This document shows, piece by piece, positions 3,755 to 64,000 of a DNA stretch of 64,000 nucleotides. Source of the DNA: an uncultured virus (IMG/VR IMGVR_UViG_3300050508_000301) (Duplodnaviria; Heunggongvirae; Uroviricota; Caudoviricetes). Position numbers and translations under genes: made by a program. The stretch lies in IMG/VR virus record IMGVR_UViG_3300050508_000301, one strand, 5' to 3'. Position 1 is the stretch's first letter, and the number at the start of each line of letters is the position of its first letter. The notes beneath the pieces were generated by a model. It was given only the letters and a program-made list of their open reading frames with translations. It was not told the origin of the DNA and did not search any database.

Positions 3755-3831
3755 TGGGTGCGGGGGTGGGATTCGAACCCACGACCTCCAGCTGATGAAG
3801 CTGACAAGCTACCTGACTGCTCCACCCCGCA
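3755..3831 (-). tRNA. tRNA-Met(CAT), fMet-like body, CCA encoded
   Basis: TGCGGGG TG GAGC AGTCAGGTA GCTT G TCAGC TTCATCA GCTGG AGGTC GTGGG TTCGAAT CCCAC CCCCGCA C CCA. Confidence 0.85.
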
Positions 3832-4556: not shown

Positions 4557-5180
4557 CTAGCGGCCAGAGCTGCCGAATCCTGCTGTGCCTCTTTCGGAAG
4601 GTCCCAACTCATTAACTTCCACCATTCGATAGGAATCCGCTAACAATGGCAACGGCACCACCTGCGCTACCCGATCCTGTGGGGCCACAGTCACCCAGCC
4701 AGTACTCACATTACGAACATAGGCTCCGAGAGTACCCCGGAACCCAGCATCGATCACAGTCGGGTTGACCAGCAACCCCTTCTCGAAAGACGATGAACGG
4801 CCGATGATCAAACCCCACACTCCGGGCGGCCATTCGATCGCCACCTTGCTTGGGATCCACGCCACCTCGCCCGGCCGGATCTGCATGTCCTGGGTGCCAG
4901 TGTAGTACAGGTCGTAGCCTGCATCGCCAGGGTAGGCTCGAGTGGGCAGGGTAGCCAACGGATCGGTTCGCACCACCTTAGGCTCGTTCTGAGCTGCCTC
5001 AGCTTCGTAGATAGCTCGAGCCGCTGTGTACTTAAGATCCGGATCGCCGGGTTGAGAAACAGCCGATGCGCCCGTATTGGTCATTACTCGCAGACCGGGT
5101 GGTGCCTGGGACGGGTGAGCATTGGGACCATGCAGGCCCTCCAAGAACGACTCTCTGAACTCCCGCCAGCGCCTACCCAC
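4557..5180 (-). CDS. dut: trimeric dUTPase with N-terminal extension
   Basis: Five motifs: GDAGYDL, GRSS, VIDAGFRG, DRVAQ, RGTAGFGSSG. Confidence 0.93.
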   Translation of the reverse strand: MGRRWREFRESFLEGLHGPNAHPSQAPPGLRVMTNTGASAVSQPGDPDLKYTAARAIYEAEAAQNEPKVVRTDPLATLPTRAYPGDAGYDLYYTGTQDMQIRPGEVAWIPSKVAIEWPPGVWGLIIGRSSSFEKGLLVNPTVIDAGFRGTLGAYVRNVSTGWVTVAPQDRVAQVVPLPLLADSYRMVEVNELGPSERGTAGFGSSGR

Positions 5181-5427: not shown

Positions 5428-5762
5428 AGGATCATCGATTGCAGGGCAATGGCCGGCAGACGCCTATGACAATCCTCGATGTGGTTCATCAGGATCGCCG
5501 CAAAGAGATGCGGGGTACCCTGCGACCATGCTCGTTTGGCTGCCCACACTACGAGCGGTGCAGGGATCCCGTAACGCTCATAAGCTCGGATAGCTCGATC
5601 GAAGAGCCGGCTATCGAGGGTCTGCAGCTCCAACAGCTCACTGACCACCTGCCCCGGCTCGTTCACCTTCCACCGGGGTTGGGCTTCGGGTTGACTTATG
5701 GCCAATTGCCGACCTCCTGGACCCGCTGGGCCATCATGGCATAAACCTCCAGATCCCGCCAC
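5424..5762 (-). CDS. hypothetical protein (true start probably downstream of 5696)
   Basis: Stop overlaps the start of the next gene. Confidence 0.45.
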   Translation of the reverse strand: MAGSGGLCHDGPAGPGGRQLAISQPEAQPRWKVNEPGQVVSELLELQTLDSRLFDRAIRAYERYGIPAPLVVWAAKRAWSQGTPHLFAAILMNHIEDCHRRLPAIALQSMIL

Positions 5763-6109
5763 GAGTCAGTTGGTGCCGGACGCCCCTCCTTGAATGACGA
5801 CAGCACCCGGGACAGCTTGCCGAGTGCGTAGAAAGCGATGGCTGCTTGGGTGCCGTCCTCAGGGCTAATTCCTGGGAACATCTCGTGCATGGCGCCCGCC
5901 ATGATCCGCAGATCGGTCGAGCCGTACTCGAACGCCTTAGCATCCGCCAACTCTCGCAACTCCAGCTGGTGCTGATCCATCCACTGGAACAGCTCGGGCA
6001 GCTTCGGGGTGTAAATATGCAAATTCGGGAAAGGGGTGCTCTTCGGCCCCTTCTCGACCACTGCTTCGACCTGGTCCTTCACGATGTCCTCATTGGGGGT
6101 AACAGCCAC
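5696..6109 (-). CDS. nucleotide-modification-associated all-alpha protein (DUF1599/dNTP pyrophosphohydrolase-like)
   Basis: KxxEYG..KLSR..DSWRDLEVYA pattern; adjacent to purZ. Confidence 0.65.
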   Translation of the reverse strand: MAVTPNEDIVKDQVEAVVEKGPKSTPFPNLHIYTPKLPELFQWMDQHQLELRELADAKAFEYGSTDLRIMAGAMHEMFPGISPEDGTQAAIAFYALGKLSRVLSSFKEGRPAPTDSWRDLEVYAMMAQRVQEVGNWP

Positions 6110-6117
6110 ACATCCTC

Positions 6118-7212
6118 CTAGCGTAGGGGCACCAGTGTATCAGGCCCAGTGGTAAACGCTGCAAGTCGGGCCGGGTGGTTCATCGTACCGAGGTCGGTTT
6201 CGATGCGCTGCAAAAACGGCCACAGCCCCTCGTGGTGGTCCAGCACCCCTCGGTCATCTGTGTCTGCCAGCTCGGGGAACACGTAGTCGACGAAGGTCAG
6301 TACCGGATGGATGCGGTCCGATGGCCACCCGTTCGCAACCATCGCTCGGTAGGCTAGGGTGGCGTCCCACTCGCCAATTCTGCGGATTTTCTTGGTGACT
6401 GTAGTCCGCTCCGGCTTGATGTAGCCATTGGTGCGGGTCGCCAATTCTTCCCAGGTCAACTCCCGATACATCGGACCGCTGTTGCCCGCTACCCGGATCG
6501 GGTAGGTGCGAAACACCGGCCACACCTGCAGCTCGATGTTGGGCGCCCAGGGGCTGAGTCCTGTCATCGCCAGGAAGTCGATCGCCCTACAGTCCGAGGA
6601 GGTGCAGTACGGGTATTCGCCTGCGTGCAGGCCCAGGCCGAACCCCTGGGTGCCTTCGATGATGACGTCCTTGTCGCTGGAGAAGGCCGAGTACAGCATC
6701 GGGGTCGTCGGCACCATGTTGATGGACATATCGTCCATGTCGCCATCCCGGGGGAGAGATTTGTACCATTCCTCCCAGGTCATCGCAGTGCGCATCAGTC
6801 GATCGGACCGGGCAGCGCCAATACCTTTGGCAGTCGACCCGATCCGGCCGGTCAGCTTGGCCTCGGCCTGTTTGTGGTCGTCAGTGATGACCGTGGCTTC
6901 AGGGTCGACCCACAGCCGGTCTCGCACTGGGATGCCGGCAGCCTCGAGCTGGTTGATCTCGCCGTACAATACATCGGGGTCGATCTCGGAGCCGGCGGCG
7001 ATCACAAGCCGACAGTCCCGGTTGGTGACTGCTGCGCAGGGGATCTGCCTCAAAGCGAACCCGACTCCATCCTGGTATGCGGTGTGACCTGCGTTCGGAC
7101 CCGCCACCCTGACCACAGCGCCCACATGGGGCGATTTGGCTAGCCATCCGGTTACGTGACCTTTGGCCTCGGACCCTGTTTGACCACCGACCACAACATG
7201 CAGATTAGCCAT
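6118..7212 (-). CDS. purZ: PurA paralog of PurZ type (probably GTP-using PurZ0)
   Basis: GGQTGSEAKG (Ser in place of the PurA Asp), GPNAGHT, IGSTAKGIG, EGTQG, YPYCTS, RVAGNSGP, TTVTKKIRR, TFVD. Confidence 0.8.
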   Translation of the reverse strand: MANLHVVVGGQTGSEAKGHVTGWLAKSPHVGAVVRVAGPNAGHTAYQDGVGFALRQIPCAAVTNRDCRLVIAAGSEIDPDVLYGEINQLEAAGIPVRDRLWVDPEATVITDDHKQAEAKLTGRIGSTAKGIGAARSDRLMRTAMTWEEWYKSLPRDGDMDDMSINMVPTTPMLYSAFSSDKDVIIEGTQGFGLGLHAGEYPYCTSSDCRAIDFLAMTGLSPWAPNIELQVWPVFRTYPIRVAGNSGPMYRELTWEELATRTNGYIKPERTTVTKKIRRIGEWDATLAYRAMVANGWPSDRIHPVLTFVDYVFPELADTDDRGVLDHHEGLWPFLQRIETDLGTMNHPARLAAFTTGPDTLVPLR

Positions 7213-9745: not shown

Positions 9746-10261
9746 CTACTCTAGCACACGCTTTGACACCGGGGCAAGCGGGCTATCAGCAGTAGCCAGA
9801 TGATGTTCAGCCAGTCCAGGAGACGGATGCTTCTGCTCCAACAGCCACCAATAACCATGTACCACCGCATCCCGGGCATGCCCCCGCTGATCAGTCGGAA
9901 TGTGTGACATGTCCGGCATCTCAAACCCGTGCGCCCGCATACGTGCGAAACCAGGCCGTTTTATCAGCGCAGGCTGCTTAACGCAAGGAATCTTACGATG
10001 CAAGCATTTGTGTTTGACAGCACCAATAACCTCAACTGTGGTACATTCCGACCACGTAACCTGTTCGCCATAGTTACGCCACTGCTCGATGACCACATGG
10101 TCAAGCTGGGCGTTATCGAGCATAGACCAGAACCATTGCACCGCTGGGTCTGGCTCCAACACGTTCACCTCGATCACGGCGAAGCCCCACATGATCACAT
10201 AACCGACGTGGCGCTCACCTGGATCAATAGCCAACACCCTCGTGGTTTCGAGGAGCCTCAT
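9746..10261 (-). CDS. RuvC-like Holliday junction resolvase
   Basis: VLAIDPG, VVIE, HARDAVVHG. Confidence 0.78.
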   Translation of the reverse strand: MRLLETTRVLAIDPGERHVGYVIMWGFAVIEVNVLEPDPAVQWFWSMLDNAQLDHVVIEQWRNYGEQVTWSECTTVEVIGAVKHKCLHRKIPCVKQPALIKRPGFARMRAHGFEMPDMSHIPTDQRGHARDAVVHGYWWLLEQKHPSPGLAEHHLATADSPLAPVSKRVLE

Positions 10262-10569
10262 AGCTTATCGTGGTTCCGAGCCACGGCTGCGTTAGCGTGC
10301 GCCATGGCCTCGTCGATCAACTTAGTCAGAGCTAGCGATAATTCTCGACCCTCTGGGCAGATCTCCACGTAGATGTGCGCCAGATTGGCAGTCGCTACCC
10401 GGATCCGATTGTGCAGCTCGACAGCCTTCTCACCGGGCGGGTAATACCGGACATCTCGATCGATCCGGTCATGTAGCTCTTGCTTAGCCATCCGTACCTC
10501 TCTCGCTATAGGGAAATGCAAACCCACCAGAGCGGGCGTATTCGGATTCCACGCATTCATGCGGCCCAC
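10258..10569 (-). CDS. Acb2/Tad1-like helical hairpin protein
   Basis: YYPP..CPEGRELSLALTKL..EAMAHANAAVAR. Confidence 0.6.
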   Translation of the reverse strand: MGRMNAWNPNTPALVGLHFPIAREVRMAKQELHDRIDRDVRYYPPGEKAVELHNRIRVATANLAHIYVEICPEGRELSLALTKLIDEAMAHANAAVARNHDKL

Positions 10570-12461
10570 GGCTTCGCATCAACCTTCCATGGGATGACAT
10601 GGCTTTTGTCCCACCCACCGAACAGCTCCATCAGCCACTCCTCCATGAGAGCAACTACGAGCTTGACCAACGCCATCCCCTCCTCGCCGGCAGGCACCTC
10701 CAACATCAACGAGTCGTGGATCTCGTTAAGCATCAGGCCTGGGTACTCGTACTCGACCTCGACCTTGATGATCTTCATCACCTCGGCCACATTGCACTGG
10801 ATCAGCTGGTTCATCGCCTTGTACGGATGGAAACTGCGTTCCATATCCGAGAACCAACGGCGACGGCCAGTCACCAACTGCACATAGCCGAACCGCTTAA
10901 CCCGGTACTCCTGGTCCCGATACAGCTTTACGAACTGGGGGAACGTAGCCCGGTAATCGTCGAGCCACTCTCTGGCCTGGGATTCCGGGACGACGATATC
11001 CCCCTGCTCCTTAAGCGTCTGTCGAAACTTTCTCGGGCCAGCGCCATAAAGCGTGGCGAAGGTAAGCCTCTTCGCCAGGGTACGCCATTTCGACCAATCT
11101 CCGTCATCAGGGGAGACCCCGAACACTCGTATGGCAGTTTGACCGTGAACATCGTCACCTGCTAAGAGGACCTGCCGCATCGGCTCACATTCAGCACAAT
11201 GCGTCGCCACACGGACTTCCGCCTGGGAGATGTCGACCTCCCAGAGTTCGTGATCCGGTTTGGCCTTGAAGAAACTTCGTATAGAAGGCACACCAGCTGG
11301 GAGTCTGAAATCGTGCGGGATCGCCTGTAGCTGTACCCGCTCCACGGAGAGTCGTCCAGAGATCGTCCCCCGACCGCTCCCTTGCTGACCATCAGCTTTG
11401 GTTTGGTGGTAGGATGGCCGGAGTCGCCCATCTGGACCACATAGCTCAGGCCAGTTCTCGTACCATTTCGTTAACGCCGAGCTGAGGTTGCTGAGCTGCT
11501 CATATTCGGCTGCTCCCGGGATATTGCGTGCACGCAGCTCCCGCACCGCATCCTGATCAACCGACGGAACCGGGTTTTTGCCTTCGGTCCAGCTAACAGG
11601 CTCCGCAGCCTGTTTGGTAAAGAACCACCACCTGGCTCCTGCCGGGGTCGGATCACGCCGCCACTCTCGTTTGAGCTGGAGCCGCAGGAAGTCCCGTTCC
11701 CGCCGGAGCTTGGCCGCAGCCTCCCTACAGGCCTCGACGTCGAATCCGACGCCTCGGGTTTCCATCCGATACAGGCAGATCGCAAGGTCGATCTCTCGGT
11801 CAATCAACTCGAACGGCTCACCTACTGAACCTTCGTCGATCAGCGACCTCTGGTGGTGGTAGAGCCGCAGACATTGTTCGACGTCTTTGGTGGCGTAGGG
11901 AGCAACCAGGTCCCAGGGTGCGAGGTCGTAGCGGGGGTTCCCTCGAGCGTCCTTGTGTTTCTTGAGCCATTGGGCGAGGCGGCGCTCTGCGTCTCGCTCG
12001 GTCTCGCCCCACAACCGCTCACAGGTCGGTTTCAATCCGGTCGGATAACCCGGGAAGATGATCGGGCACACGACTTGCGTATCCCACATCACATTATTCG
12101 ACAGGTCAACGCCCTGCTCGTATTTCCGGTGCCCAGCCCGCATCATCAAAAGATCGAACTTGACGTTGTGGGCCATGAGCCGCTGGCGTCTCAACCACTG
12201 ACACAGCTCGACCCACTCGGCCTCACTCAGGTTCGGAGCGTCGTCGAAAAAACTGGCTTGCAGGCCCTTCGCATCCGGCTTGTCAAGCACGCCCTGATCG
12301 AAAGCAAAACACCGGGTCTGGATCGCTCCCGGATCGCCCCAAGCTACGGTTACGATCGCTGGTCGTGCGCCTTCATCCGTGAATAGGCCCGAGGTTTCAG
12401 TATCGAACGCTACGATCAGACCGCTACGGTCGGGGAGCTGATCGGTGATAGCGGTCGGCAC
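10557..12461 (-). CDS. family A DNA polymerase with 3'-5' exonuclease
   Basis: DTETSG, HNVKFD, YATKD; TISGRLS, DISQAEVR, RTLAKRLTFATLYG, IHDSL. Confidence 0.95.
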   Translation of the reverse strand: MPTAITDQLPDRSGLIVAFDTETSGLFTDEGARPAIVTVAWGDPGAIQTRCFAFDQGVLDKPDAKGLQASFFDDAPNLSEAEWVELCQWLRRQRLMAHNVKFDLLMMRAGHRKYEQGVDLSNNVMWDTQVVCPIIFPGYPTGLKPTCERLWGETERDAERRLAQWLKKHKDARGNPRYDLAPWDLVAPYATKDVEQCLRLYHHQRSLIDEGSVGEPFELIDREIDLAICLYRMETRGVGFDVEACREAAAKLRRERDFLRLQLKREWRRDPTPAGARWWFFTKQAAEPVSWTEGKNPVPSVDQDAVRELRARNIPGAAEYEQLSNLSSALTKWYENWPELCGPDGRLRPSYHQTKADGQQGSGRGTISGRLSVERVQLQAIPHDFRLPAGVPSIRSFFKAKPDHELWEVDISQAEVRVATHCAECEPMRQVLLAGDDVHGQTAIRVFGVSPDDGDWSKWRTLAKRLTFATLYGAGPRKFRQTLKEQGDIVVPESQAREWLDDYRATFPQFVKLYRDQEYRVKRFGYVQLVTGRRRWFSDMERSFHPYKAMNQLIQCNVAEVMKIIKVEVEYEYPGLMLNEIHDSLMLEVPAGEEGMALVKLVVALMEEWLMELFGGWDKSHVIPWKVDAKPWAA

Positions 12462-25578: not shown

Positions 25579-25725
25579 TTTGTTATCCTAACACGTAGGT
25601 TGACTGGGTGTCAAGTGGCTAATCGGAGTTCCGGTCGATCCAGAACATCACTCCTAGTAGCACAAATCCTGCGACAGCCACAAGGACCCCCAGAATCGAT
25701 AGTCAGCATAGTGCTCTCCTCTCAG

Positions 25726-25799
25726 TGCGCCCGGTGGGACTCGAACCCACAGTCGCCCGATTAAAAGTCGGGTGCCGTATCCAATTGGGCTACAGGCGC
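25726..25799 (-). tRNA. tRNA-Lys(TTT)
   Basis: GCGCCTG..CCCGA CTTTTAA TCGGG..GTGGG TTCGAGT CCCAC CGGGCGC A. Confidence 0.88.
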
Positions 25800-28095: not shown

Positions 28096-28097
28096 AG

Positions 28098-28169
28098 CAC
28101 ACCCAGCAGGATTCGAACCCGCATCCTCGGCTCCGTAGGCCGCTGCTCTCTCCATTGAGCTATGGGTGC
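28098..28169 (-). tRNA. tRNA-Arg(ACG)
   Basis: GCACCCA TA GCTC AATGGAGA GAGC A GCGGC CTACGGA GCCGA GGAT GCGGG TTCGAAT CCTGC TGGGTGT G. Confidence 0.88.
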
Positions 28170-29461: not shown

Positions 29462-32240
29462 AGGGATTGCATGTCCTCTCTTGGGATGGGGATGGGACCC
29501 TCCGGGATGAGCAGTTCAGCATCAACCCAGTAGACGTCGAAAAAGCCGTTATGGTGTTCGACGTAGAACAGTCGCATATACGGGTACGGACGGATGAACT
29601 CCTGCCGATGCTTCACAGGGCCTCGTGCGCCGACGCCTGGCCCTTTCGCATGGTAGCGCTGCATCACATAGCTAGGGCGTTCCGGCATCGAAAGCCTGCT
29701 CCTGCTCGATCCGGTCTACGACGTAGCGCCACACCCGTCGGCGTTGGTCCTTGCTGACGCATCGCTCCAAGTAGGTGGCACAGAACTTGTGCATGGCGGC
29801 CATGACGTTTAGTTCGGCGTCATCAAACGGATCAACGTGGATCTCGAATTTCATAGGTGTCACCTCCATCAGTTGCGCCTTTCTGCGACACCGATCAACA
29901 CCGGCAGCTCGAACTGCTCGTCGAGCGACTGCGTTTCGTCATCCTCCGGTGGGCGGGGTTCGACACCGTACGCCACCCTTGTCCAGAACTCGATCCTGCG
30001 CTGGAGAGCGTTGACCAACGCATCCTGCTCGATGGCCTCGACTCGTTTCTTCGCCAGCTCGACTGCCATCTGAGCATTCGATCGCTTGACGCCCCGCAGT
30101 TCCGCTTTGAGTTGTGATTTACGCAATGAGCACTCCAAGTCCCAGGCATACCCGCACGCCACAAGCGAAAGAGCGATGCCGGCGGCAACGAGTCCGAGCC
30201 AGCGCCACCCGATGTCGCTCGCCATCCAGACGAGACTACAAGTCATAACGGTTGCCGCCATCCGGATCCTGGCTACAGTCTGCGCCATAATCCACCGTAT
30301 GTAAGTCACTGACCAGCCTGTCTATGTGTTCGAGGTGTAGTTGAGCTGTTTGGTCGGGATTGGTAATGTGGTTCTTGGTGATGATGTCGAGCAATCCCGC
30401 CACCTCGCTCACCACCAAACTGAGATCGTAGTCCTCTCGGATTTGGTCCCTGGCTGCGTACGCCATCTTGGCGCCCTGGGTCAGGAATCGCACTACGAGG
30501 TTAACGGTGGGATCTGCCATTCGTCGTCCTCCCCGTCCGCCGTAAGCATAACACACACCTTGACTACCTGTCAAGTGACGCCGGTAAGCATCTTCCACAC
30601 CCGATCGGCTGCTTCGTTAGTCGAATAGCCAATCGCCTTACGAACATCGTCTTGGGTGAACTCCCTAGACCAGTCGTTGCCCCGAGTGACCGTAACAGTC
30701 ATGACGACCGGACGGGTTTGGTACAGGCCTCCGGATAGCACGGGAGGTGGGCTAGCAAACCAGCAAGCACTTCGGCTGGCCCGTCGTTCCCAGCCCTCAG
30801 GGATGTGCTCACCGAAGCCGAACCAGGTTGGGCGGCCATCGACTTCAGGGCCAGGGTAGAGGTTGGGATACTCATCCATCGGCTGGCATCTCCGTTGTAG
30901 TGGGCATTGCGGGCGGGCGTTTGATCTCCCGTACGTGGACGTTGTGGGCATGGATCGAGGCGATCACACACAGGAATCCGACGATGAAGATGAGGATGCG
31001 GGTACTGGTGCGCTCCACGGCCTCAATGGTTTCGGTGTAGGTTTGCATCAGACTTTCTTATTATAGGTCACGGCGGTCACTTGCTCACACACTACTGTGT
31101 GGCCTGTCCGGCGAGCGTGCAGGCTAGCATTAGCCAATGCGTTCTTGTAGGAGTCAGTCTTCCAATCGCAGTCATTACATTCGGCCATCGCTGCGACGAT
31201 CCCGGAGTATCGGTTCTTAAGCGATGGGATCTTAGGCATGGTGGCACTTCCCATATTTAGGACACCAGTGGGACCGCTCTTTGGTGAAGCAATCGATGCA
31301 CCTGACTGGGGTTGACCCCCAAGGTCCTTCGGTGACCTCGATACCGCAGAACGACCGCTCACCGAGCTTGAAGTCGCAGCAAATAACGTGGGTAATGTCA
31401 TCGTCGAAGCACCCGTCAGGATCTTCGACCTCCGGTTCAACGATCGTCATTCAGGACACCCTTCACTGCTGCCGCCTCGAAGACTGACTGAGCTATCGAG
31501 GCTGACATCATCCGAATCGCTCGGACTTCAACTGCACCTCGATCCTTGACCAGCTGCGGTAACTCAAAAATATCGTCGATGACCTCGTGCGTAACGTATG
31601 TACCAGGGTCTCGTTGACCACCACTAATGACGAGCGCCACTGCCCAACCAGTCACGATTCCTCCACGGGATCGAGTGCGGTAAGCGGTACGACGCAAGAC
31701 CACACCTCACCGTTAGTCAGAGTGAACGGCTGGAGCATCGCCATCGGGTCCTCATCGATGCGTACGATCACCTCATTCGACCCGAGACCATGAACGGGAT
31801 ATTCGTTCTCCGCTCCCTCAGTGTTGACCACAACAGCCAGCACGCCTCGTCTTAGCGGCCACGGGCAGTGGCGGTTTAGGCGGACAGTGGTTCCCGGCTT
31901 CATGACCATTCCGCCCAGTAGACACCATCTCTGATTTCGACGTGGCGCCGCAAGCTGGTCGCAAGCCGGACTAGGTCATCAGCGCCGTCACCGTGACCCT
32001 TCGGCCGGTTACACGTGGCGATTGGTTGGTCGTTTTCGTCAAGTGCGCTCTCTTCCGCCCCGCACAGCTCGACCTCCTGGCAACCCTCGACCACTTGGAT
32101 CGGCAGGGTGGCGGAAGCTATTGTCATGTGAGGATTCGGCCGATAAGCGCCGTTGATACCGACCTGCCAGCGCCGCATATCCTCAGCAGCTTGCTCGACA
32201 GAACCGTAGGTGTATTCGAGGAGTCTTACGACCCGGATCA
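29458..32240 (-). other. run of about 10 small hypothetical early genes (e.g. 29458-29688, 29672-29854, 29869-30309, 30236-30520, 30571-30880, 31048-31239, 31232-31450, 31437-31703, 31652-31909, 31900-32241)
   Basis: Tightly overlapping minus-strand ORFs, several with CxxC/H motifs; promoter at 30545-30574. Confidence 0.55.
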
Positions 32241-33092
32241 TGGTTTTGCTCCACTCAGTGCTGCGTCGGCGGCCAAGAACAGACCTGGTAACGCCACTCT
32301 CCGTACGGCAGACGTCGAGACGTCGCCTTCGTTCCATTGGTCGCCCGAGTAACTGGCGATCATGCTCATGTACCCGTTGATGATGGTCAGCCAGGGTGTT
32401 TTGTTGTCGCTCTCCTGGACGGCCATGGCGACGGCCGATGCGACCATGAGGTCGAGCGATCGGGGGTACACTTGACCGACCGACCCAAGCACCTCCTCGA
32501 AGCCCCACTCATCTGCCAAGTAACGATCGAGGTCGGCGCAGGTTTCCGCACTGCCCAGGATGTCGAGCATGTCTTGCTGGGTGCCGACTGGGCCTCGAAT
32601 ACCTCGTAATGGCAACCGATCTTGGGCCTCGAGCAGGATTCTCTTGACCACTTGATCTTTGCCGTAACGAGCCGGGATCTCGATCAGATGGTCCATGGCT
32701 CTGCGCATCCGGATAAGCGAGATGTTGTCGACCACATCGGCGGAGGTCATGCCCCAGTGGATCAGCTCAGGCTCGAAGGTTTGGCCATGCGTAGCACCCA
32801 AATATAGTGCCAAACCAGCCCGCCAGTTGAACTCCTCGATCCTGGCCTTCACGTCGTGGTGAGTGAACTCCTCCCGCTGCCGGATGGAGTCGAGGTCGAC
32901 ATCGTCTGCGACGCTCAGGTAGGCAGCGAACACGTCTTCGAACCGGGGGACGTGGTCATACAGGCGGGTATGGTCCCGCATGTAGCGGACGATATCGAGC
33001 CACCACAATCGTTCGGTGCGGGCATTCCATTCGGGTGTCCACAGCTCGATCATCTCGGGGGTGGCGTATTCACTCAGTGGGTGCGAGATCAT
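32238..33092 (-). CDS. shortened adenylosuccinate-lyase (PurB)-like protein
   Basis: HDVKARIEEFN, IHWGMTSAD, LRGIRGPVGT, SVGQVYPRSLD, QWNEGDVSTSAVRRVALP; no SSxMPxKxN motif. Confidence 0.82.
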   Translation of the reverse strand: MISHPLSEYATPEMIELWTPEWNARTERLWWLDIVRYMRDHTRLYDHVPRFEDVFAAYLSVADDVDLDSIRQREEFTHHDVKARIEEFNWRAGLALYLGATHGQTFEPELIHWGMTSADVVDNISLIRMRRAMDHLIEIPARYGKDQVVKRILLEAQDRLPLRGIRGPVGTQQDMLDILGSAETCADLDRYLADEWGFEEVLGSVGQVYPRSLDLMVASAVAMAVQESDNKTPWLTIINGYMSMIASYSGDQWNEGDVSTSAVRRVALPGLFLAADAALSGAKP

Positions 33093-33534
33093 CGATCGCC
33101 TCCAGCCATTGGCGTGCGAACCCGGTCGGAGCCAGTTTGCGCCAGCCAACTCCATCGTTGGTGTCATCGATCCGGACTCGTCGCTCGGTGGCGTAGGCGA
33201 TCTCGTCGGCGATGGTCTCGAAGCTCTCGCCGCCATCGTTCATCCGTATGAGTGGCCCTTGTTCACCTTCGTCCATGCTCAGGACCAACCCCTCCTCGCC
33301 CAGATCGATGCCTATCGAAAAGATGACGTTGGACGACGACCTCATCAGAAGATGCGAATCGGGGTCGATGTGTTCGAGAGCCACGCCGAGACAGCAGTGG
33401 CTGCAGGTGCCGTCAGCGTGAAATAGCTTCAAGGACGAACAGCCTTGGGTGTATTCGCCGGACACCAGGTCTCGTACCCATTGGATCCGGTGCAGCATCT
33501 GGTCGTAACTGAGTTCCATGATTCCGTCTTTCAT
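33070..33534 (-). CDS. hypothetical protein
   Basis: QG..L..HCCLGV..MNDGGESFETIAD, a recurrent phage motif. Confidence 0.65.
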   Translation of the reverse strand: MKDGIMELSYDQMLHRIQWVRDLVSGEYTQGCSSLKLFHADGTCSHCCLGVALEHIDPDSHLLMRSSSNVIFSIGIDLGEEGLVLSMDEGEQGPLIRMNDGGESFETIADEIAYATERRVRIDDTNDGVGWRKLAPTGFARQWLEAIDDLAPTE

Positions 33535-38528: not shown

Positions 38529-38837
38529 TCAGAGATCGTCGGGAGTGACCTCGCCCGTGTCAGCCTCGGCCTCGCCGTTGGTTGCAGCCGGCTTGGCTTT
38601 CTTGGCTTTCTTGGGAGCGGGCTGCGGCCACTCGAACCCGTCGATCGTGTCCCGTGCGAGCTGGCGAGCTTCGTCGTCCAGCTGCTCATCTCGAACCGTG
38701 GCGTACAGCCTCGCCTTGAGCTGCGCATCGTGGCCCGGCATGAATCGGGATTTCTTGTGCTTCGGCGTGTTGCCGCAGCCGCAAAGGCAAGCTGCCCTCG
38801 GCTCCGCCTCAGCCTCAGCTGTCTTGGTGTCGGTCAC
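38529..38837 (-). CDS. CxCGC-PGHD Zn-finger protein 1
   Basis: CLCGCG..FMPGHDAQLK. Confidence 0.75.
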   Translation of the reverse strand: MTDTKTAEAEAEPRAACLCGCGNTPKHKKSRFMPGHDAQLKARLYATVRDEQLDDEARQLARDTIDGFEWPQPAPKKAKKAKPAATNGEAEADTGEVTPDDL

Positions 38838-38878
38838 TGATTACCTTCTCCTAGCTTGACGGGAGTTCGCCTCCCAGT

Positions 38879-39352
38879 CTAGCAGATTCGTTGCAAGTCC
38901 GCAAGTGCTGTTTCAACCGCATCCAGTTCTCGATCGGTGAACGGCTCATGCGTCGTATCGGTCCGGAGCCGCAGATCGGGATGCTTCAGCGTGGCGATTT
39001 TGAGAGCGTTCTCGGGCGTGATCGCAATCGCCCAGACCGTGCCTCTTCGGTACTGGTTAGTCCACTTCAGGACCTTGGCCGCCGCCTTCATAAGCTGTAG
39101 CAGCTCACCCGCCTTGATCTCAGGCTCTTTCGGTTTGCTCGGTTGCTTGGGCGGCCGAGCTGCGATCTCCCTTGCCTTGTCGAGAAACTTGGTCCAGCCT
39201 CGCTCCTCGAGGATTGCCTCCGCTTCCGGATTGCCGCCTGCTAGTGCTTCCTTGACCAGGTGACTCTTGTATTTGGCATCGTGCCCTGGTCGAAACTTCC
39301 CGCCTTTGGTGGTTTCACCGCATCCGCATATGCACTGTGGTTGATCTGCCAT
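38879..39352 (-). CDS. CxCGC-PGHD Zn-finger protein 2
   Basis: CICGCG..FRPGHDAKYK. Confidence 0.75.
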   Translation of the reverse strand: MADQPQCICGCGETTKGGKFRPGHDAKYKSHLVKEALAGGNPEAEAILEERGWTKFLDKAREIAARPPKQPSKPKEPEIKAGELLQLMKAAAKVLKWTNQYRRGTVWAIAITPENALKIATLKHPDLRLRTDTTHEPFTDRELDAVETALADLQRIC

Positions 39353-39354
39353 GC

Positions 39355-40637
39355 TCACATCCTAGCACACGTGTCAAGTCGTTTCCCAGGCTTGCGTGCG
39401 CCGTTGTATGCGTAGTCATGCCAGGACGCATAGAACGGTTGGACAGTTGCTAGACATTGAGGGTGGTACCCTGGTGGGTACTCCGAGAGGGTTTCTACGG
39501 GGTAGCTGACTCGCTCACCGCAGTAGCACACCAGCTCAAAGGTTGTCAACATCGATCCACCCGAACGCCAGGCCGGCGATCACGATCACGCACACGACCA
39601 GAACGATCAGCAGACCCGCTTCACGCCACATCAGCCGGAATCTCTGCGTCGACCACCGGGTGTTCCCCCGTGTAGCGCTTGATGAGCTTCTGATCGTGCG
39701 GACGGTCAACAAACCAATACCGCAGGCTCAATCGTCGACGGACAGCACGCCACCCCCGCAGGAAACCGACGAACGAGTCAGGAAGTTCGTTGAACCCCTT
39801 AATGGTCATCTCCTGGGTGAAATGCCAACACTTGACGCAGACCGTGGTTGCATTCGGAAGCACCACGTGGTGGACCGCATCGCCCATCTCTTTGTGGCAC
39901 AGCGGGCAATGAGTCGGGATATTGATGGCAATGCTCATGACTTGGATCCCCTCCGGCGACCTCGAGTGGGTCGACCTCGCTTGCGATGCTTGGTAGCCGT
40001 CTTGCCGGTGTATACCCTACACCCAGGCCCTTCGCACCGATTGCCTTTCTGGCACTTTGCGTGGAAATCCGCAGCGTGGTAGTCGTTGTACGGATTCCCC
40101 GCCATCGGGCCTGGCACTACACCCGCCCCCGGAGAGTAGCGATCTCGGCTTGCGCCTGCGCAATCACCCGCTCCTGGTCCTGCTCACGAACCTTCATAGG
40201 GCTGAAATCGCCGAACTGATAGCGGATCAGCTGCTGTTCCCGTCGCCGTAGAGCTGCGAGCTGACGACGGTGACGACCGTGCCGGACACCGTAGCGCTCT
40301 CGAGCTGCCTCGTTGGGTCCGCTCGTCTCGTGTCGACGAGAAAACCACCCCTTCGGCTTAGTGGGCGCCTTGCCTTGGCCACCCATATGCCCGGTCATTC
40401 GTCCTCCTCCTCCGCCAACACGGCGACCACGTAATTGTGCAGCCGTTCGGCTCCTCGTCGGATATCTTGAACTGCCTGGATCGGATTCCGGGTCATCCCG
40501 GCCACCAACCCTTCGTGAATGCTGCGCAAGGTGGGCGCCAGGATGTCGTCCACTTCCTCGTTGCTATATGCCATAGATTGCGACCTCATCAGCGTGGCCC
40601 GGAGCCGCCTCACTCCGGGAACGCTGGGAGACCACAC
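39355..40637 (-). other. five small hypothetical genes (39355-39552, 39621-39938, 39935-40117, 40117-40398, 40395-~40572)
   Basis: Coupled minus-strand ORFs. Confidence 0.55.
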
Positions 40638-41210
40638 TCACCCGATCTCGAGCTTGTTGCTGTCTCGAGGGAAGGTGTAGTCCTTCGGTTGGGTGTTCTT
40701 GCCGATGACCCGAACCGTGACCTCGGCGTCAGTCTCGCTGACGATGTGGCCTTCCTTCCACCAGCGGCCGACCTTGACCTTGGCGGGATGGAACCCGGCG
40801 ACCTCGGTCGGCTGCAGGGTCTCGGGGTCGAGTTCGCCCCGATCCCCGGCGAAGACCTCTCGTGGATCGGTTGACTCGGGATCCTCGTCGGGCTTGTTGA
40901 CGTCCTTGACCTTAGGCGCCTTCGGCTTGGCAGCGGTCATGAAGTGACCCCAGCCCCGTTCCTTGGCGAGCGCCACCGGGTCCTTGGTGACCAGCGAGCC
41001 GCCGTCATCGAAGGTGAAGCCCTCGCCCGCACGGAACGCCTTCAGCAGGGCGGACTTGAACTTGGCGTCGTGGCCCGGCTTGAAGGTCCGCCGCTTCGGG
41101 ATCGTCAAGCCGCACGAGCGGTGGATCTTCAGCTCGCTGCCTTCGTCATCCGTGGTGACCTCGACGACGGAGTAGCACTTGCACTGGTTGAAAACTGGAG
41201 TGTCGGTCAT
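40638..41210 (-). CDS. PGHD Zn-finger protein 3 (frame stays open upstream to 41468)
   Basis: CKC..CG..FKPGHDAKFK; promoter TTGACA-N17-TATAAT at 41242-41270. Confidence 0.72.
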   Translation of the reverse strand: MTDTPVFNQCKCYSVVEVTTDDEGSELKIHRSCGLTIPKRRTFKPGHDAKFKSALLKAFRAGEGFTFDDGGSLVTKDPVALAKERGWGHFMTAAKPKAPKVKDVNKPDEDPESTDPREVFAGDRGELDPETLQPTEVAGFHPAKVKVGRWWKEGHIVSETDAEVTVRVIGKNTQPKDYTFPRDSNKLEIG

Positions 41211-41467
41211 GGCTGACTTCCTTTCGTTGTCCTCCATGACCATTATATCATGTCCGTGACTTGGTGTCAAGTCCCCATTCCTAAGATCTTCATCCGTCCA
41301 GGCCAGACCGAGCGCCTCCTCGAGCGTGCCGGCGAAACCCACCGTTTCGACAGGTATAGTCCGATGAACTACCTTCCATCGACCATGCTCCGAGGAGGAG
41401 ACAGCCGATACAAGGTAGTTCCCGGACCTGTAGAGCCAGCGGCTTACTTTCTCGAACTCTTCTGCCA

Positions 41468-41926
41468 TCAGCCTGCCTTGGCGGTCTCGATGACCCGACG
41501 GAAACCGACTTGCTCGGTCAGGTCGTGGGTGTGGATGCAGGTACCGCACAGCCAACCAGCGTCGCTGGCGTCGATCCACCGGCCCTGGCCGACGGCCTCG
41601 GGGCAGCTCCAATGGCTGTGGCTGACGCTAGCCTCGTCGGTGACCACACCGATCAGGCTGTCGGCGTGGCGAGTCTCGACGAAGCGCCCGCGGTGTCGGC
41701 TACGGACGGGGACGCTGGCGACGATCTCCATCGGCAGGAAATGGCCCCAACCCTTCTCGACCATCGTGACCACGGCGAATTCACGGACCCACCAGCGGGA
41801 ATCCCGGGCCTGGCTCAACAGACGACCCTTGAGCCGACCGTCGTGACCAGGACGAAACCGTCGGGCGACTCGCTCGCCGCAGCCGCATTCGCACTGCTTG
41901 ACTTGCTGGGTCCCGGTCTCTTGCAT
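41468..41926 (-). CDS. CxCGC-PGHD Zn-finger protein 4
   Basis: CECGCG..FRPGHDGRLK; leaderless promoter. Confidence 0.75.
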   Translation of the reverse strand: MQETGTQQVKQCECGCGERVARRFRPGHDGRLKGRLLSQARDSRWWVREFAVVTMVEKGWGHFLPMEIVASVPVRSRHRGRFVETRHADSLIGVVTDEASVSHSHWSCPEAVGQGRWIDASDAGWLCGTCIHTHDLTEQVGFRRVIETAKAG

Positions 41927-41957
41927 GTTTCCATCGTAACACGTCCTTGTCTCGGAG

Positions 41958-43307
41958 TCAAGGTTTAAACCCCCTCCGAGCTGCAAGCTGGAACCCTGTG
42001 ATCGCTAAATCGGTGTCCTCGGTCTTGGCCTTCAACAACTCTACGAGTTCGGCGTCCACCGTATTCTTCGTAACCAAGTCAATAGCCAGTGTCGGGCGAT
42101 CCTGACCAAACCGTCGAACACGCCTGCGAGCCTGACTATTAACAAAAGGACGGGGGCTTCTCTCAACAAATATGCAACAATCGGCCCTGGTAAGTGTAAC
42201 ACCCTCAGATAGTGTACCAACGGTCCCCACCAGAACATCGTATTTGCCTTCCTTAAAACCTCGGATCGTGGCCTGACGATCGTTCATCGAATACGCTGAA
42301 GACACCACCCCGACCGAGCGTTTCATCGAGACCAGGAGACGTCCCAAGGCCTCGGCTGTGTTCTTGTAGGCGCAGAACATGATGGTAGGATGAGTGCGCT
42401 CCGCCATCAACTCCCGGACCACATCGAGCTTACACGAGCCGGTCTCATCCAGATCGAGGGTCGACAACCCGGTCGAACACTGCAGCAGCTTCTGGTATTT
42501 GCCGCCGTCGTTCCAAGACACCACCTCCGTGCCCGTCTCCTGAAGGACAGCGAACCAGTCTTCCTCGAGCCGCCGGTATACCGACATTTGCTTAGGCACC
42601 ATGTCCAGCTCGATGGTCTGGCTAGTCATCGGAGGCAGGTCCGGCAGTACCTCGTCAAACGTACGCCTTAGCCAGCGGTCGGCTAGGCCCCACTCCTGCG
42701 CTGCCTGCTCCCAGGTAAATCCCCGCTGCAACCCGGTAATCTTCGTGCCGCCCCATGGCGGTTTCCAGGTACGGAAGTACTCGTAGACCCAGTTCCAGTA
42801 GTTGGTGAATCGCTTGTCCCCGGGGTGGATCAAGCGCAGGAACATGAAGATCTCGTGCGCCCAGTTAGGAAGTGGCGTCCCAGTTGCTAAATAGATCCGG
42901 TCGCTCTTAAGCTTGGTCGAAACTACCTTGGTCCAAACAGTGCCTCGAGCCTTCAGGTAGTGGGCCTCGTCGCAGATGATCGTATCCCACCGACGAGCCA
43001 GATCCTCCCGTGGAGCCGCCACGACGTTGTAGATCGGGTTGCCGGTCTTGGATACCTCACCGGTAGGGACCCGCTTACACACACTAGAATAGGACCCCCA
43101 GGTGATCTCAGCGTCGGGATGCCACAGCTCGATCTCTTCGTCCCACACGTCCGAAAGAGCGGCCGGCGATAGGACTAGGGTTCGACCTTGGGCGGCCAAC
43201 AGAAGCTGATTGGTCTTACCAACACCTGGCTCATCAGCCAGCACTGCTCGTCCTGCGTCTAGCAGGAATCGGCTACCGGCAGCCTGGTATGGTCGTTGTA
43301 CGGGCAC
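41958..43307 (-). CDS. SNF2-like SF2 helicase
   Basis: RPYQ, LADEPGVGKT, DEAH, TGTP, EGVTL, QARRRVRRFGQ. Confidence 0.9.
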   Translation of the reverse strand: MPVQRPYQAAGSRFLLDAGRAVLADEPGVGKTNQLLLAAQGRTLVLSPAALSDVWDEEIELWHPDAEITWGSYSSVCKRVPTGEVSKTGNPIYNVVAAPREDLARRWDTIICDEAHYLKARGTVWTKVVSTKLKSDRIYLATGTPLPNWAHEIFMFLRLIHPGDKRFTNYWNWVYEYFRTWKPPWGGTKITGLQRGFTWEQAAQEWGLADRWLRRTFDEVLPDLPPMTSQTIELDMVPKQMSVYRRLEEDWFAVLQETGTEVVSWNDGGKYQKLLQCSTGLSTLDLDETGSCKLDVVRELMAERTHPTIMFCAYKNTAEALGRLLVSMKRSVGVVSSAYSMNDRQATIRGFKEGKYDVLVGTVGTLSEGVTLTRADCCIFVERSPRPFVNSQARRRVRRFGQDRPTLAIDLVTKNTVDAELVELLKAKTEDTDLAITGFQLAARRGFKP

Positions 43308-43595: not shown

Positions 43596-44663
43596 TCAAG
43601 AGGCTACTGCTGGTAACCCTTGGTTCAGGCGCCATGCGCCTTCCCAGGTTTCCCACCACCGCCAGGCATGTTCCTCGATTGTGAACTGTGCCGCCATCGC
43701 CCTCGCAGCTTCCGAATGTTCCGTACGGAAGGCATCATTTACCAGCAGTCGGCGGACCACAGAAGTCCAAGCTCGACTCTTGTTCGGGACCACAAACCCA
43801 CCGCCAAGCTCCTGCAAACTGCGATACTCCGAGGTGTTGGAAGCTACGAATGGGACGCCTACCGCTGCGTACTCGAGCGGCTTAAGCCATGATTTGGACC
43901 GGTTAAAGGCAGTGTCCGCCAGGGGAGCTGCACCTACCGCCAAGGTGGCGACGTGGTCCATCCAGTCATCGAACTCGACCGTACCGGGACCTTCGGGGTC
44001 ACGATCCAAACCCAAGGCTCGGCCTGTGCCGTCGGGAGGTCCAATGATCCGGAAGGGAAAGCCTTCCTTCTGGAGGATGCTAGCGGTAACGCCGAGGAGA
44101 GGGAGGTCATCAGGGTGCGACTGCAAAGCGCCTGCCCAACCCCAGTGCGGCTCGAGGTCATCCGGCCGTTCGATCTTCAAGAATCGTTCGGGGACACAGT
44201 TCCGTAGGATTCGGGCGTTGTTATATTTGCTGTAGCGTTCCATCAGCTGCGGTGTCGACACTGTTACCAAGGTCGCAAGCTTACAGGCCTCGGTGGCGAT
44301 CCGCCAGTTGTTGCTTGGTGACCACTTCGGGTGCAGCATCCGGAAAGCAGCGTTCGAGGGATGAATGCAGGTGAGGTCGTCGTCCATGTCGACCACCACC
44401 GCCTTACCACGCCCACGCAACAGTCGGATGAGGTCGTACGCCAGGATGTTGGTGGGTCGCTGGAACACGAAGACATCGACATCATCGGTCTGGTCAGTGA
44501 TGGTAGCGATCCGGCCACTGAGAATCACGCCACCGATGCCTGACGCTTCGCCTGGTAGGATGACCTCGCTGTCGTATCCCTGGTCGGTGAGCGCCTGGCC
44601 AGGCCAGATCATCCGGTAATGCCCACAGCCCCATTTATCTGCTGGGTAGACCTTTACTCTCAT
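43596..44663 (-). CDS. GT-B glycosyltransferase
   Basis: GCGHYR, DMDDD, VSTPQL, GWAG, FNRSKSWLKPLEY. Confidence 0.85.
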   Translation of the reverse strand: MRVKVYPADKWGCGHYRMIWPGQALTDQGYDSEVILPGEASGIGGVILSGRIATITDQTDDVDVFVFQRPTNILAYDLIRLLRGRGKAVVVDMDDDLTCIHPSNAAFRMLHPKWSPSNNWRIATEACKLATLVTVSTPQLMERYSKYNNARILRNCVPERFLKIERPDDLEPHWGWAGALQSHPDDLPLLGVTASILQKEGFPFRIIGPPDGTGRALGLDRDPEGPGTVEFDDWMDHVATLAVGAAPLADTAFNRSKSWLKPLEYAAVGVPFVASNTSEYRSLQELGGGFVVPNKSRAWTSVVRRLLVNDAFRTEHSEAARAMAAQFTIEEHAWRWWETWEGAWRLNQGLPAVAS

Positions 44664-58672: not shown

Positions 58673-59030
58673 ACCTGACGGGCCTAGGAACAGGCGCAGG
58701 TGCCGGTTCGTTGGGCGCCAGCCAAACCCCCGCAGCGACAAACGCTGCGATAGCCACGTTCAACCACAGCGACCCTGCCATCTTCTGACCATTGGCCAGA
58801 TACCCGGCCAGCAGCCCCAAACCACCGAGAGCGGCTGCTGTGATCGATTTGCTGTAGCTCCACAGGGGCAGCCCCAGGTTGGCAGTGATGTACACCTGGA
58901 ACGCTGTGAAGCCTGCAATCGCCACCTGAACCCACTCGGGGTTGGTGATCTTGTCGTCGGTCCATGCGGCGGCGATAGCCATCACAACTGCGCCGACCAC
59001 GGCGACGACACCTTTCATGTATGCACTCAC
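58671..59030 (-). CDS. holin-like 4-TM protein
   Basis: Internally duplicated K(A/G/S)xxA..W..(A)PN pattern of actinophage holins. Confidence 0.7.
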   Translation of the reverse strand: MSAYMKGVVAVVGAVVMAIAAAWTDDKITNPEWVQVAIAGFTAFQVYITANLGLPLWSYSKSITAAALGGLGLLAGYLANGQKMAGSLWLNVAIAAFVAAGVWLAPNEPAPAPVPRPVR

Positions 59031-59722
59031 GCAGGCACCTCCTTGGTGCTTCGCTTCCACGGCTTACCTGCAGTACTGTCGAGTGGCGAATCCCCAACCG
59101 AATAATGACAACGCCACGTCCGCTCCGGCACGTGGACAAACTTAGCTCCGATATCCAGCAGACGGAGCCAGCCGCCCCAGTCCTCGCAATCCTCCCGTGG
59201 CCACTCCTTTGACCCGGGAGTTGGAAAGCCGCCGGAGCGCTCTAGAGCCGCCCGCCGTACGACCGCTGTAATCGGGATGAATGCATGCCGACGCATGTGC
59301 CGTGCTTGCTCGGGTCCGAACGGGACCCCTAGCGGGTGAACCAACTGACCGTTGTGCATGACTGCTAGAGCGTCAGGTCGTTCGGGTGTGGCCTCGGGCC
59401 AGCCAACCAGCTCGAACCACGAGTACACTACATCGGCGTTCGTAGCCTTCGCTGCGCTCATGCATCGAGCGAGATGCTGCGGTAGGAACTCATCATCATC
59501 ATCGAGGAAAGCAACATAGTCGGTTGAGGCATTCCGCCAGGATTTGTTGCGAGTAGGCCCGGCACCATCTCCGTCCTCATCCACTATAACATGGATCTGG
59601 TCGGGGAATCGGGTCTGCTGGTTGACCGATGCTAACGCCCGATCGAGTAGCGCTTTACGAGGCGGAATCGTAGGAATGCAAACCGCTACGGTAAGCGGCT
59701 TGCGAGCCTTGGCCTGTCCCAT
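59027..59722 (-). CDS. GT2 glycosyltransferase
   Basis: IPT, RN, FLDDDD, EDW. Confidence 0.9.
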   Translation of the reverse strand: MGQAKARKPLTVAVCIPTIPPRKALLDRALASVNQQTRFPDQIHVIVDEDGDGAGPTRNKSWRNASTDYVAFLDDDDEFLPQHLARCMSAAKATNADVVYSWFELVGWPEATPERPDALAVMHNGQLVHPLGVPFGPEQARHMRRHAFIPITAVVRRAALERSGGFPTPGSKEWPREDCEDWGGWLRLLDIGAKFVHVPERTWRCHYSVGDSPLDSTAGKPWKRSTKEVPA

Positions 59723-63851: not shown

Positions 63852-64000
63852 GACAGCCAGTCTAGCACACTGTTTGGGGAGCAAGCCAGGACTTGACTCG
63901 GAGGCAAAAATGTGATTTAATGGAGGTATGGCAGCCCCCAAGATCGTCGATCCCGTCAAGACCATCGAACGATGCTTCGAACGAAAGCAGGAGGCACTGA

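Follow-up and report, generated by a model that had tools for sequence, protein, structure and literature searches.

The active site of PurB is formed from three subunits, and for the Staphylococcus aureus enzyme the accessible part of PMC2917274 assigns the residues of that site chain by chain; in the same text the RY motif is given as Arg4C and Tyr5C, and Thr95 makes a bond with adenine N1. In published accounts of the Z pathway, the PurB that carries out the second step comes from the host. Intact PurB is, however, also encoded by the cultured PurZ0 phages Hiyaa, Ghobes and Archimedes. A cut-down phage PurB family has no published description in the literature that was searched; a member of such a family is described here.

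The gene lies in a 64,000-nucleotide stretch of DNA from an uncultured virus of the Caudoviricetes (the window), at 32238..33092 on the minus strand, and its 284 amino acids, followed by TGA, make up a protein (P0001, or mini-PurB) that comprises domain 1 and the proximal part of the domain-2 helical bundle. As the sequence-only reading had stated, the frame is intact, running from 33092 to 32238 with no internal stop, and it is well provided for translation, with a Shine-Dalgarno-like GGAGG (33099..33103, minus strand) 6 nt ahead of the ATG. P0001 has no match in Pfam. With phmmer it matches the mycobacterial PurBs 9oo0 (E 1e-47) and 4nle (E 8e-45) in three separate blocks, in agreement with the earlier claim that blocks of actinobacterial PurB are kept. 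The AlphaFold2 model of P0001 (pLDDT 89.8, pTM 0.90) folds like PurB, its bundle helices being shorter, its top Foldseek match is 9oo0 (TM by query 0.79), and domain 1 together with the helical bundle represents the fold of the fumarase/ASL superfamily.

Alignment to full-length actinobacterial PurB, numbered as in P0053, defines the missing parts. Residues ~135-172, including R149-S150-H151, and ~256-295, including S280-S281-x-M283-P-x-K286-x-N288, E293 and R294, are absent, and both gaps are spanned by short linkers: around residues 140-150 of P0001 (32643..32675, minus strand) in place of the hairpin with the catalytic His, and around residues 226-233 (32394..32417, minus strand) in place of the SSxMPxKxN loop. 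Domain 3 (PF10397, 349-476) is also absent, the C-terminus of P0001 corresponding to host residue ~348. The sequence-only reading had reported all three losses and had allowed that an alignment might recover the catalytic residues; it did not, the segments being truly absent. The same is seen across 102 aligned short relatives: at E 0.01 no profile of a lost segment, for any of the three, matches one of them, and none carries the motif G/A-R-[ST]-H or G-S-[ST]-x-M; the segments bearing the catalytic acid His (R[ST]H) and the signature loop with the catalytic Ser (SSxMPxKxN) are deleted, each being found in 0/102.

The residues with which a PurB subunit binds substrate in its own site (HD, TS, the GxxG loop, Q, S and R) are kept in the mini-PurB family; all positions that follow are on the minus strand. 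H79-D80 (32853..32858), equivalent to S. aureus H68/D69, is conserved in 101/101 relatives having a residue there. Q207 (32472..32474), the counterpart of Gln212 that binds N6, is present in 102/102 relatives, and so is each of the phosphate-binding residues S261 and R264-R265 (32298..32312; Ser306/Arg310 in S. aureus). At T116-S117-A118 (32739..32747), where position 118 aligns by motif to S. aureus Thr95, short forms have T116 in 102/102, S117 in 98/102 and A118 in 92/102; the cellular counterpart of 117-118 is SR in all 66 cellular matches parsed, and four basal short forms retain the R at 118. At G240 (32373..32375), the centre of the predicted four-subunit core, 99% of the 71 short forms compared have G. 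The N-terminal RY donor motif, by comparison, has decayed to E8-Y9 in P0001 (33066..33071) with the arm itself kept, and R[YWF] is found in 7/87 short forms against 65/66 cellular PurBs. Across relatives at 33-68% identity the substrate pocket is invariant and both linkers are unconserved; the 15 invariant columns of the short family are all common to full-length PurB, with no new invariant polar residue. As judged from these alignments, the residues lent to neighbouring sites are all lost and those of the own site are near-invariant, a pattern of chain-A residues kept and chain-B and chain-C segments lost that matches the S. aureus assignments. Furthermore, in comparison with a 94%-identical strain, 26 of the 34 listed differences are synonymous, giving a pN/pS of about 0.09, with a ceiling of 0.18 if all 8 further differences are assumed to be non-synonymous; by this measure the family is under purifying selection.

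A PurZ0-type synthetase, the enzyme that opens the pathway to 2-aminoadenine (Z) in DNA, is encoded 25 kb from mini-PurB (6118..7212, minus strand), with the motif GGQTGSEAKG and Ser at the PurA Asp position. It matches PF00709 and phrog_1211, its best phage matches are from PurZ0-type actinophages, and its best PDB match (E 1e-73) is 7vf6, which we take to be the PurZ0 of phage Archimedes. Directly after purZ0, as part of the Z cluster, lies an uncharacterised 137-aa gene (5696..6109, minus strand), for which DUF1599 is a lead only. By sequence family, the window also contains a family A DNA polymerase (10557..12461, minus strand), 33% identical to those of Ghobes and Archimedes, and a dUTPase-like gene (4557..5180, minus strand; PF00692) at the DutZ position, a candidate for the DutZ described in PMC12884076. 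Neither near neighbour proved to be a partner of mini-PurB. The 113-aa ORF with a start codon overlapping the stop of mini-PurB (ATGA; 31900..32241, minus strand) adjoins it in locus L005 too and is not adjacent in other mini loci, and was therefore rejected as an obligate or specific partner; the post-purZ0 gene was rejected since it is common in PurZ0 loci (63/80) and not specific to mini-PurB phages.

PurZ0 was found in the window and in three of the four viral records with mini-PurB (G002, G003 and G004), the fourth (G001, 38% complete) beginning just past the gene and being uninformative; the background is 213 of 50,697 phage records with any PurZ0-type match. Mini-PurB is thus linked to purZ0 wherever this could be tested, in 4/4 informative genomes, and neither the decay nor the lack of a purZ link that the sequence-only reading had named as counter-evidence was observed. 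The only genes common to the window, G002, G003 and G004 are mini-PurB, purZ0, its downstream gene and the dUTPase. Intact PurB was present in 21/80 PurZ0 records and none of the 80 had both the intact and the short form, which is not significant alone (~0.8 expected among 80). The short form appears to fill the slot of intact PurB in PurZ0 phages. The assumption carried over from the literature, that host PurB performs the second Z step as the papers say, is therefore incomplete, since many of the phages with PurZ0 themselves encode a complete PurB.

Among 50,697 phage records P0001 had no cultured carrier and only four unannotated matches at 23-25% identity, and a search of a viral structure library returned only intact viral PurBs. 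The metagenome and GTDB scans, both dominated by cellular PurB and describing the matches listed rather than showing absence, gave at least two complete short forms (L005 and L006) among 80 loci kept and full-length match spans at 80/80 loci listed, respectively; plasmids gave full-length-span matches only. In the Streptomyces sample 371/401 genomes had one match each to the family profile, the places listed (all but 221) having full-length-sized frames, and P0270, sought in the 401 genomes by a search without a positive control, was not found. Longer PurB forms, just as devoid of the loops, were seen among Streptomyces genome records, and this layout therefore extends beyond Z phages. The tree places the short family as a derivative of cellular actinobacterial PurB, with five Hiyaa-type intact phage PurBs as a distant outgroup; its exact sister group differs between FastTree and IQ-TREE. 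The same three-part trimming is seen in P0267, which would derive from a eukaryote-like PurB; it is encoded on a contig of 35 kb, and its context search gave three full-length relatives. Going by tree placement alone, this trimming may have had more than one origin (P0267 and possibly P0166).

For four copies of the relative P0029 the prediction is a homotetramer, with a score of 0.72 against 0.03 for the best control, although likeness to solved PurB tetramers may contribute to this score. The mark used is attained by 20/30 solved homo-pairs and 1/23 monomers, and across runs at least 89% of contacts agree with pLDDT at least 85. In the model G212 contacts G212' of a neighbour; this residue maps to G240 of P0001, and the deletions end just short of the core around it. 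The RY arm still touches the neighbour's helix 5 and reaches the phosphate site. If P0029 does self-assemble as predicted, the host would be unnecessary for assembly. Interface columns equal the cellular consensus at 24/42 positions as compared with 155/246 overall, and by this comparison resemblance to the host enzyme is no higher at the interface than elsewhere in mini-PurB.

Our preferred explanation, held tentatively, is that mini-PurB is an acceptor-only subunit which co-assembles with host PurB, supplies a dSMP pocket and silences host-type sites. It keeps the nucleotide/succinyl-binding half-site along with the core at the centre of the tetramer, whereas the donor parts are gone, namely the catalytic His, the Ser loop with its Lys and Asn, the RY arm motif and the domain-3 lid. 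In a co-assembled tetramer a mini subunit facing two antiparallel host subunits would make a complete site, with the pocket from the phage and the acid and base from the host, that serves the dSMP-to-dZMP step of the PurZ0 phage; replacement of R by A next to adenine N1 may create the space that the 2-amino group needs. Host sites needing donation from mini-PurB would be dead. Arithmetic for random mixing at 50% mini leaves 25% host-type sites and an equal share of phage-type sites, and a single small gene would supply dZMP and also lower AMP/dATP. In favour of hybrid assembly, the RY motif has decayed with its arm still present and touching the neighbour in the model, the gene is under purifying selection, linked to PurZ0 and never found alongside intact PurB, a separately encoded missing half was not found, and the family comes from cellular actinobacterial PurB. 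Against it stand the P0029 homotetramer, interface columns no better matched to the cellular consensus than the protein overall, the R at 118 in four basal members, and the loop-less forms outside Z phages, with a linkage that rests on four genomes. Furthermore, exchange of preformed antiparallel dimers only would leave every hybrid site dead, and a silenced PurB would no longer cleave SAICAR, so that GMP supply would stop too unless SAICAR is also a substrate at hybrid sites. The hetero-oligomer proposed in the sequence-only reading is therefore favoured by the division between kept and lost residues, but the homotetramer model and the interface speak against it. That the virus has reduced a three-subunit enzyme to one specificity subunit, borrowing host His and Ser to turn it from AMP to the Z nucleotide, we consider possible but somewhat unlikely.

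Alternatively, mini-PurB may be a non-catalytic homotetramer acting on its own, whose four open half-sites bind succinyl-purine nucleotides (dSMP, SAMP, SAICAR) or products; it would keep SAMP from host PurB, or hold dSMP and pass it on. The P0029 model, deletions that spare the core around G240, the invariant binding half-site and an interface not specially host-like all suit this explanation, yet it is unlikely: since the RY arm reaches the phosphate site in a homotetramer the R should persist, and it has decayed, while simple binding leaves unexplained why the short form replaces the active lyase of other PurZ0 phages. That replacement would be expected of a stand-alone lyase or related enzyme in which dSMP is cleaved by H79, H112 and S117 in place of the His/Ser pair, perhaps aided by the substrate. 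These three residues are near-invariant, self-assembly is seen in the model, and the accessible part of PMC2917274 mentions older models giving a catalytic role to His68 (H79 here). A remodelled site of this kind nevertheless seems quite doubtful, as each of the 15 invariant columns also occurs in full-length PurB, no polar residue is newly fixed and the linkers are unconserved; moreover, in the accessible text of the sources, human ADSL loses activity on His159 or Ser289 substitution (bioRxiv 2025.08.15.670494) and the catalytic loop is ordered by domain 3 (PMC6301967).

A purely dominant-negative protein would inactivate host PurB tetramers and cut AMP/dATP, while dZMP would be made by what is left of the host enzyme or by a DmtZ-like route. 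The tetramer core is kept, and any mode of mixing would kill host-type sites, dimer-level exchange killing all four; but an inhibitor needs no substrate pocket held invariant at 33-68% identity, and the phage itself would be starved of dZMP and GMP, which makes this role improbable. It is also conceivable that an unrecognised phage protein provides both missing loops (His and Ser) in trans, for ~9 kb of the ~73-kb genome lies beyond the window (contigs 72-73 kb) and a very divergent partner could evade profiles. However, tblastn, a motif scan and segment profiles found no missing half encoded elsewhere; the profiles match nothing in the window, G001-G004 or G084 (those for the His and Ser segments found both positive controls, that for domain 3 one of two and is weak there), PF00206 is absent in 5/5 records, and the shared gene set listed above holds only four members. 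Such a split enzyme is thus very improbable, and a decaying pseudogene or assembly artefact can hardly be credited in view of the same three losses in 102 relatives, the low pN/pS and the gene's appearance in several sequencing runs, among which none of those listed was of RNA.

The second Z step would appear to be strongly selected in PurZ0 phages, with two solutions: some encode a complete PurB, others a half-enzyme that has no known chemistry by which to act unaided. If hybrid assembly is correct, the virus re-programmes a host enzyme by exchanging subunits, and not by inhibiting it or replacing it whole, and if the repeated origin and the Streptomyces forms fit, acceptor-only subunits would be a general means of re-programming shared-site oligomers. 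If mini-PurB works alone, then either the accepted need for the His/Ser pair is overturned or it is a new nucleotide-binding scaffold. The family is relevant to enzymatic dZTP production.

Cellular actinobacterial PurB (9OO0, 4NLE; PF00206 + PF10397) has the same fold, domain 1 and all of the own-site residues, with about 45-54% identity over aligned columns, and the mini family nests inside it in the tree; unlike it, the mini family is without the His hairpin, signature loop and domain 3, its RY motif is decayed, R105 has become mostly A, and the median length is 270 aa instead of about 475. The intact PurB-like lyases of Streptomyces phage Hiyaa (gp76) and Gordonia phages Ghobes (gp36) and Archimedes (gp38) are also encoded by phages with purZ0 and likely serve the same pathway step; intact PurBs of PurZ0 phages keep xTH and SSxMxxKxN (21/21), whereas mini-PurB lacks both, and the short family would have arisen separately, from the cellular and not the Hiyaa-type protein. 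Short 3-carboxy-cis,cis-muconate cycloisomerases (322-352 aa; the nearest named ESM Atlas clusters) are superfamily members shorter than PurB, but they carry PF00206 in 100% of members where mini-PurB escapes Pfam, and they probably lack the C-terminal domain only, their catalytic loops being kept. Mutants of Bacillus subtilis PurB reportedly form hybrid tetramers. In argininosuccinate lyase and fumarase, according to the accessible part of PMC12818424, each site is put together from three regions, every one from a different subunit, and complementation in mixed tetramers follows these regions, subunits with defects in different regions rebuilding active sites on mixing; those are mutant alleles of one gene, whereas mini-PurB is a natural viral gene and a candidate for complementation across genomes.

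The mini-PurB gene (protein P0001) is an intact 284-aa open reading frame on the minus strand of the window (33092-32238), with GGAGG 6 nt 5' of its start and an ATGA overlap between its end and the start of the next gene; the sequence-only reading had described such an intact frame with a good Shine-Dalgarno sequence. No Pfam match was obtained for P0001. In sequence searches its similarity to mycobacterial PurB falls in three blocks, and alignment with full-length actinobacterial PurB leaves gaps at approximately host residues 135-172, 256-295 and 349-476. The segments absent are the catalytic His hairpin, the SSxMPxKxN loop and domain 3, all three as had been claimed. The AlphaFold2 model is of high confidence (pLDDT 89.8) and resembles PurB structures; P0001 is like part of a PurB, yet lacks four defining PurB features. 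In strain contigs of runs X3 and X4 around 470 bases (window 33054-33525) are skipped; there the upstream 154-aa gene is replaced and mini-PurB is kept.

Well over 100 short PurB homologs were retrieved by sequence searches. The family alignment holds 102 of them (233-381 aa, median 270, 32-68% identity to P0001), omitting near-duplicates, short fragments, truncated full-length proteins and the atypical P0154, P0168 and P0267, and profiles of the three missing segments give no match to any of the 102. A strain variant from another run aligns over 735 bases with 42 differences; 26 of the 34 listed differences are synonymous, giving a pN/pS of 0.09, or at most 0.18 if all 8 unlisted differences are counted as non-synonymous. 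The short PurBs are a conserved family and not a relic, and the decay of homologs raised earlier as an objection is not what is seen.

In the available portion of PMC2917274, chain A of S. aureus PurB contributes Arg67, Asp69, Thr95, Gln212, Ser306 and Arg310 to each site, while chain B gives His141 and chain C gives Arg4, Tyr5 and Asn276. The description also covers His68, Ser94 and the GAVG loop, and puts Ser262 on the mobile loop. The positions a subunit uses in its own site are fixed or nearly so in the 102 short relatives: H79 and D80 in 101 of 101, H112, T116, G167, G170, Q207, S261, R264 and R265 each in 102 of 102, and S117 in 98 of 102. The elements donated to neighbouring subunits are all gone from the 102. 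The donated phosphate-binding RY motif (E8-Y9 in P0001) is kept as R[YWF] in 7 of the 87 short forms whose N-terminus is long enough, against 65 of 66 cellular hits parsed; this loss is informative because the N-terminal arm that carries the motif was not deleted. Position 118, corresponding to S. aureus Thr95, which bonds adenine N1 (PMC2917274, same portion), is arginine in 66 of 66 cellular hits; in the 102 short forms it is alanine in 92 and arginine in 4, a change that may make room for a 2-amino group. Both linkers bridging the internal gaps are unconserved, and no new invariant polar residue was seen in the 102-row alignment.

Four copies of the homolog P0029 (residues 3-252, alignment of 100 rows) were predicted to form a tetramer with a score of 0.72, compared with 0.03 for the best control, although resemblance to solved PurB tetramers may contribute; 20 of 30 solved homo-pairs but only 1 of 23 monomers attain the mark used, counts that carry over only roughly to four copies. 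Runs agreed in at least 89% of contacts, with partner pLDDT of at least 85. In the model the helix around G212 (G240 in P0001) forms the middle of the interface and the N-terminal arm contacts the neighbour's last helix, so the deletions appear to spare the tetramer core. Of 42 interface columns, 24 carry the cellular consensus residue, against 155 of 246 columns overall, which gives no sign of extra host mimicry.

The window also encodes a PurZ0-type synthetase (6118-7212). A short purB gene occurs in four IMG/VR records, and G002, G003 and G004 carry PurZ0; with the window, mini-PurB is thus linked to purZ0 in four genomes, and the lack of linkage considered earlier does not hold there. Any match to the window synthetase is found in 213 of 50,697 phage records. 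The linkage rests on these four, the other roughly 100 relatives being without genome context; eight of these relatives lie on 59-91 kb contigs, and the metagenome contigs L005 and L006 do not extend far enough to judge. In the fourth record, G084 (61% complete), PurZ0 was not found in the incomplete sequence, which terminates about 2 kb from a nuclease gene lying about 10 kb from purZ0 in G004. Among the best 80 of 186 PurZ0 records, 24 carry a PurB homolog, 3 short and 21 longer; 3 of 80 is not a frequency, since the query was built in part from the three short-form records. All 21 longer forms, a lower bound, retain the His and the signature loop. None of these 80 carries both kinds, but chance alone predicts about 0.8 double carriers, and mutual exclusion is therefore no more than suggested. 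PurB-like genes are also annotated in the cultured phages Hiyaa, Spocter, Keanu, Galactica, Ghobes, Archimedes, Sapo and Frizzle, with catalytic motifs intact in Hiyaa, Ghobes and Archimedes. The earlier statement that Z pathways use host PurB agrees with the available parts of bioRxiv 2025.10.22.683976 and PMC12884076, which credit the step to the host, but does not extend to the at least 21 PurZ0 records with an intact PurB.

Directly 3' of purZ0 lies an uncharacterised 137-aa gene (5696-6109, minus strand) with no Pfam or PHROG match and a weak DUF1599 lead; in 63 of the best 80 of 186 PurZ0 loci a homolog is located no more than 3 kb from purZ0, and the gene may be a core member of the Z cluster that has gone unrecognised. 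Full-length phage PurBs of divergent sequence, with their motifs intact and in some cases long insertions, were found at L004:9989-11455, L185:1498-2940, L224:6247-7743 and L229:66-1880. PurZ-like genes accompany such PurBs in records G006, G015, G019 and G085; that of G006 (L087:1486-2556) has GQFGSSGKG for GSEAKG and ECSQG for EGTQG.

The window is part of a phage genome and encodes a family A polymerase and a primase-polymerase as well as tape measure and major head proteins; proteins identical to P0001 were found on 72-73 kb contigs. Just 3' of the polymerase is an Acb2/Tad1 hairpin-domain protein (10258-10569, minus strand, E 2e-14), a putative sponge for immune signalling nucleotides. 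Among the structural genes, a glycosyltransferase cluster with a sugar C-methyltransferase-like gene (43596-44663 and 59027-63965, minus strand) suggests virion glycosylation. Several adjacent ORFs (38529-41986, minus strand) share a CxCGC...F.PGHD..K-like motif, and G004 and G084 also encode proteins of this sort. The minus strand carries tRNA genes at three scattered sites: Met (3755-3831), Lys (25725-25799) and Arg (28097-28169).

In an IQ-TREE analysis (quick mode, 91 of 162 rows) based on 243 shared columns, 31 of the 32 short forms sampled fall in a single clade (SH-aLRT 94). This clade joins two longer loop-less forms from Streptomyces genome records (support 96), nested among the cellular PurBs of actinobacteria and away from the intact PurBs of phages; P0166 groups separately. 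FastTree on all 162 rows likewise gave a single clade of 71 short forms, with weaker placement. P0154, P0270 and P0271, PurB homologs of 332-348 aa in Streptomyces genome records, are without the same His hairpin tip, Ser loop and domain 3, and two strains list two locus tags each for such proteins. P0267 (282 aa, 35-kb contig) derives from the eukaryote-like PurB subfamily and lacks the same three segments, possibly a case of convergent origin.

The reading we favour, tentatively, is that mini-PurB is an acceptor-only subunit: it would enter tetramers with host PurB, forming mixed sites with a phage-made pocket and host-supplied catalytic residues, while silencing host-type sites. The anatomy, the conservation pattern, the selection and the purZ0 linkage in four genomes were observed, whereas host binding, catalysis and substrate preference are what we infer. 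By arithmetic only, random mixing at 50% mini would give 0.25 sites of host type and 0.25 of phage type for each host subunit. The apparently spared tetramer core is needed for such a hybrid, yet also permits a tetramer without the host; that mini-PurB is a stand-alone nucleotide binder is unlikely, but is the strongest of the alternatives. A stand-alone enzyme with new chemistry is rather doubtful: human ADSL loses activity on substitution of His159 or Ser289 (bioRxiv 2025.08.15.670494, available part), and domain 3 has a role in that enzyme (PMC6301967, available part).

A pure inhibitor is less probable still. That a separate partner supplies the missing parts is improbable; tblastn, motif scans and segment profiles did not find them in the window, G001-G004 or G084; the genome extends about 9 kb beyond the window, and G001 covers about 2 kb of that. 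The genes common to the window, G002, G003 and G004 are only short purB, purZ0, its downstream gene and a dUTPase. A decay product is scarcely credible given the 102 aligned relatives with the same losses and the low pN/pS.

Searches of open-access literature on phage PurZ and PurB listed no paper about a truncated phage PurB, though the supplements of PMC12884076 and bioRxiv 2025.10.22.683976 could list phage purB genes. The rebuilding of sites in mixed tetramers has a precedent in argininosuccinate lyase and fumarase (PMC12818424, available part), and mini-PurB has a real chance of being a new kind of viral enzyme take-over.
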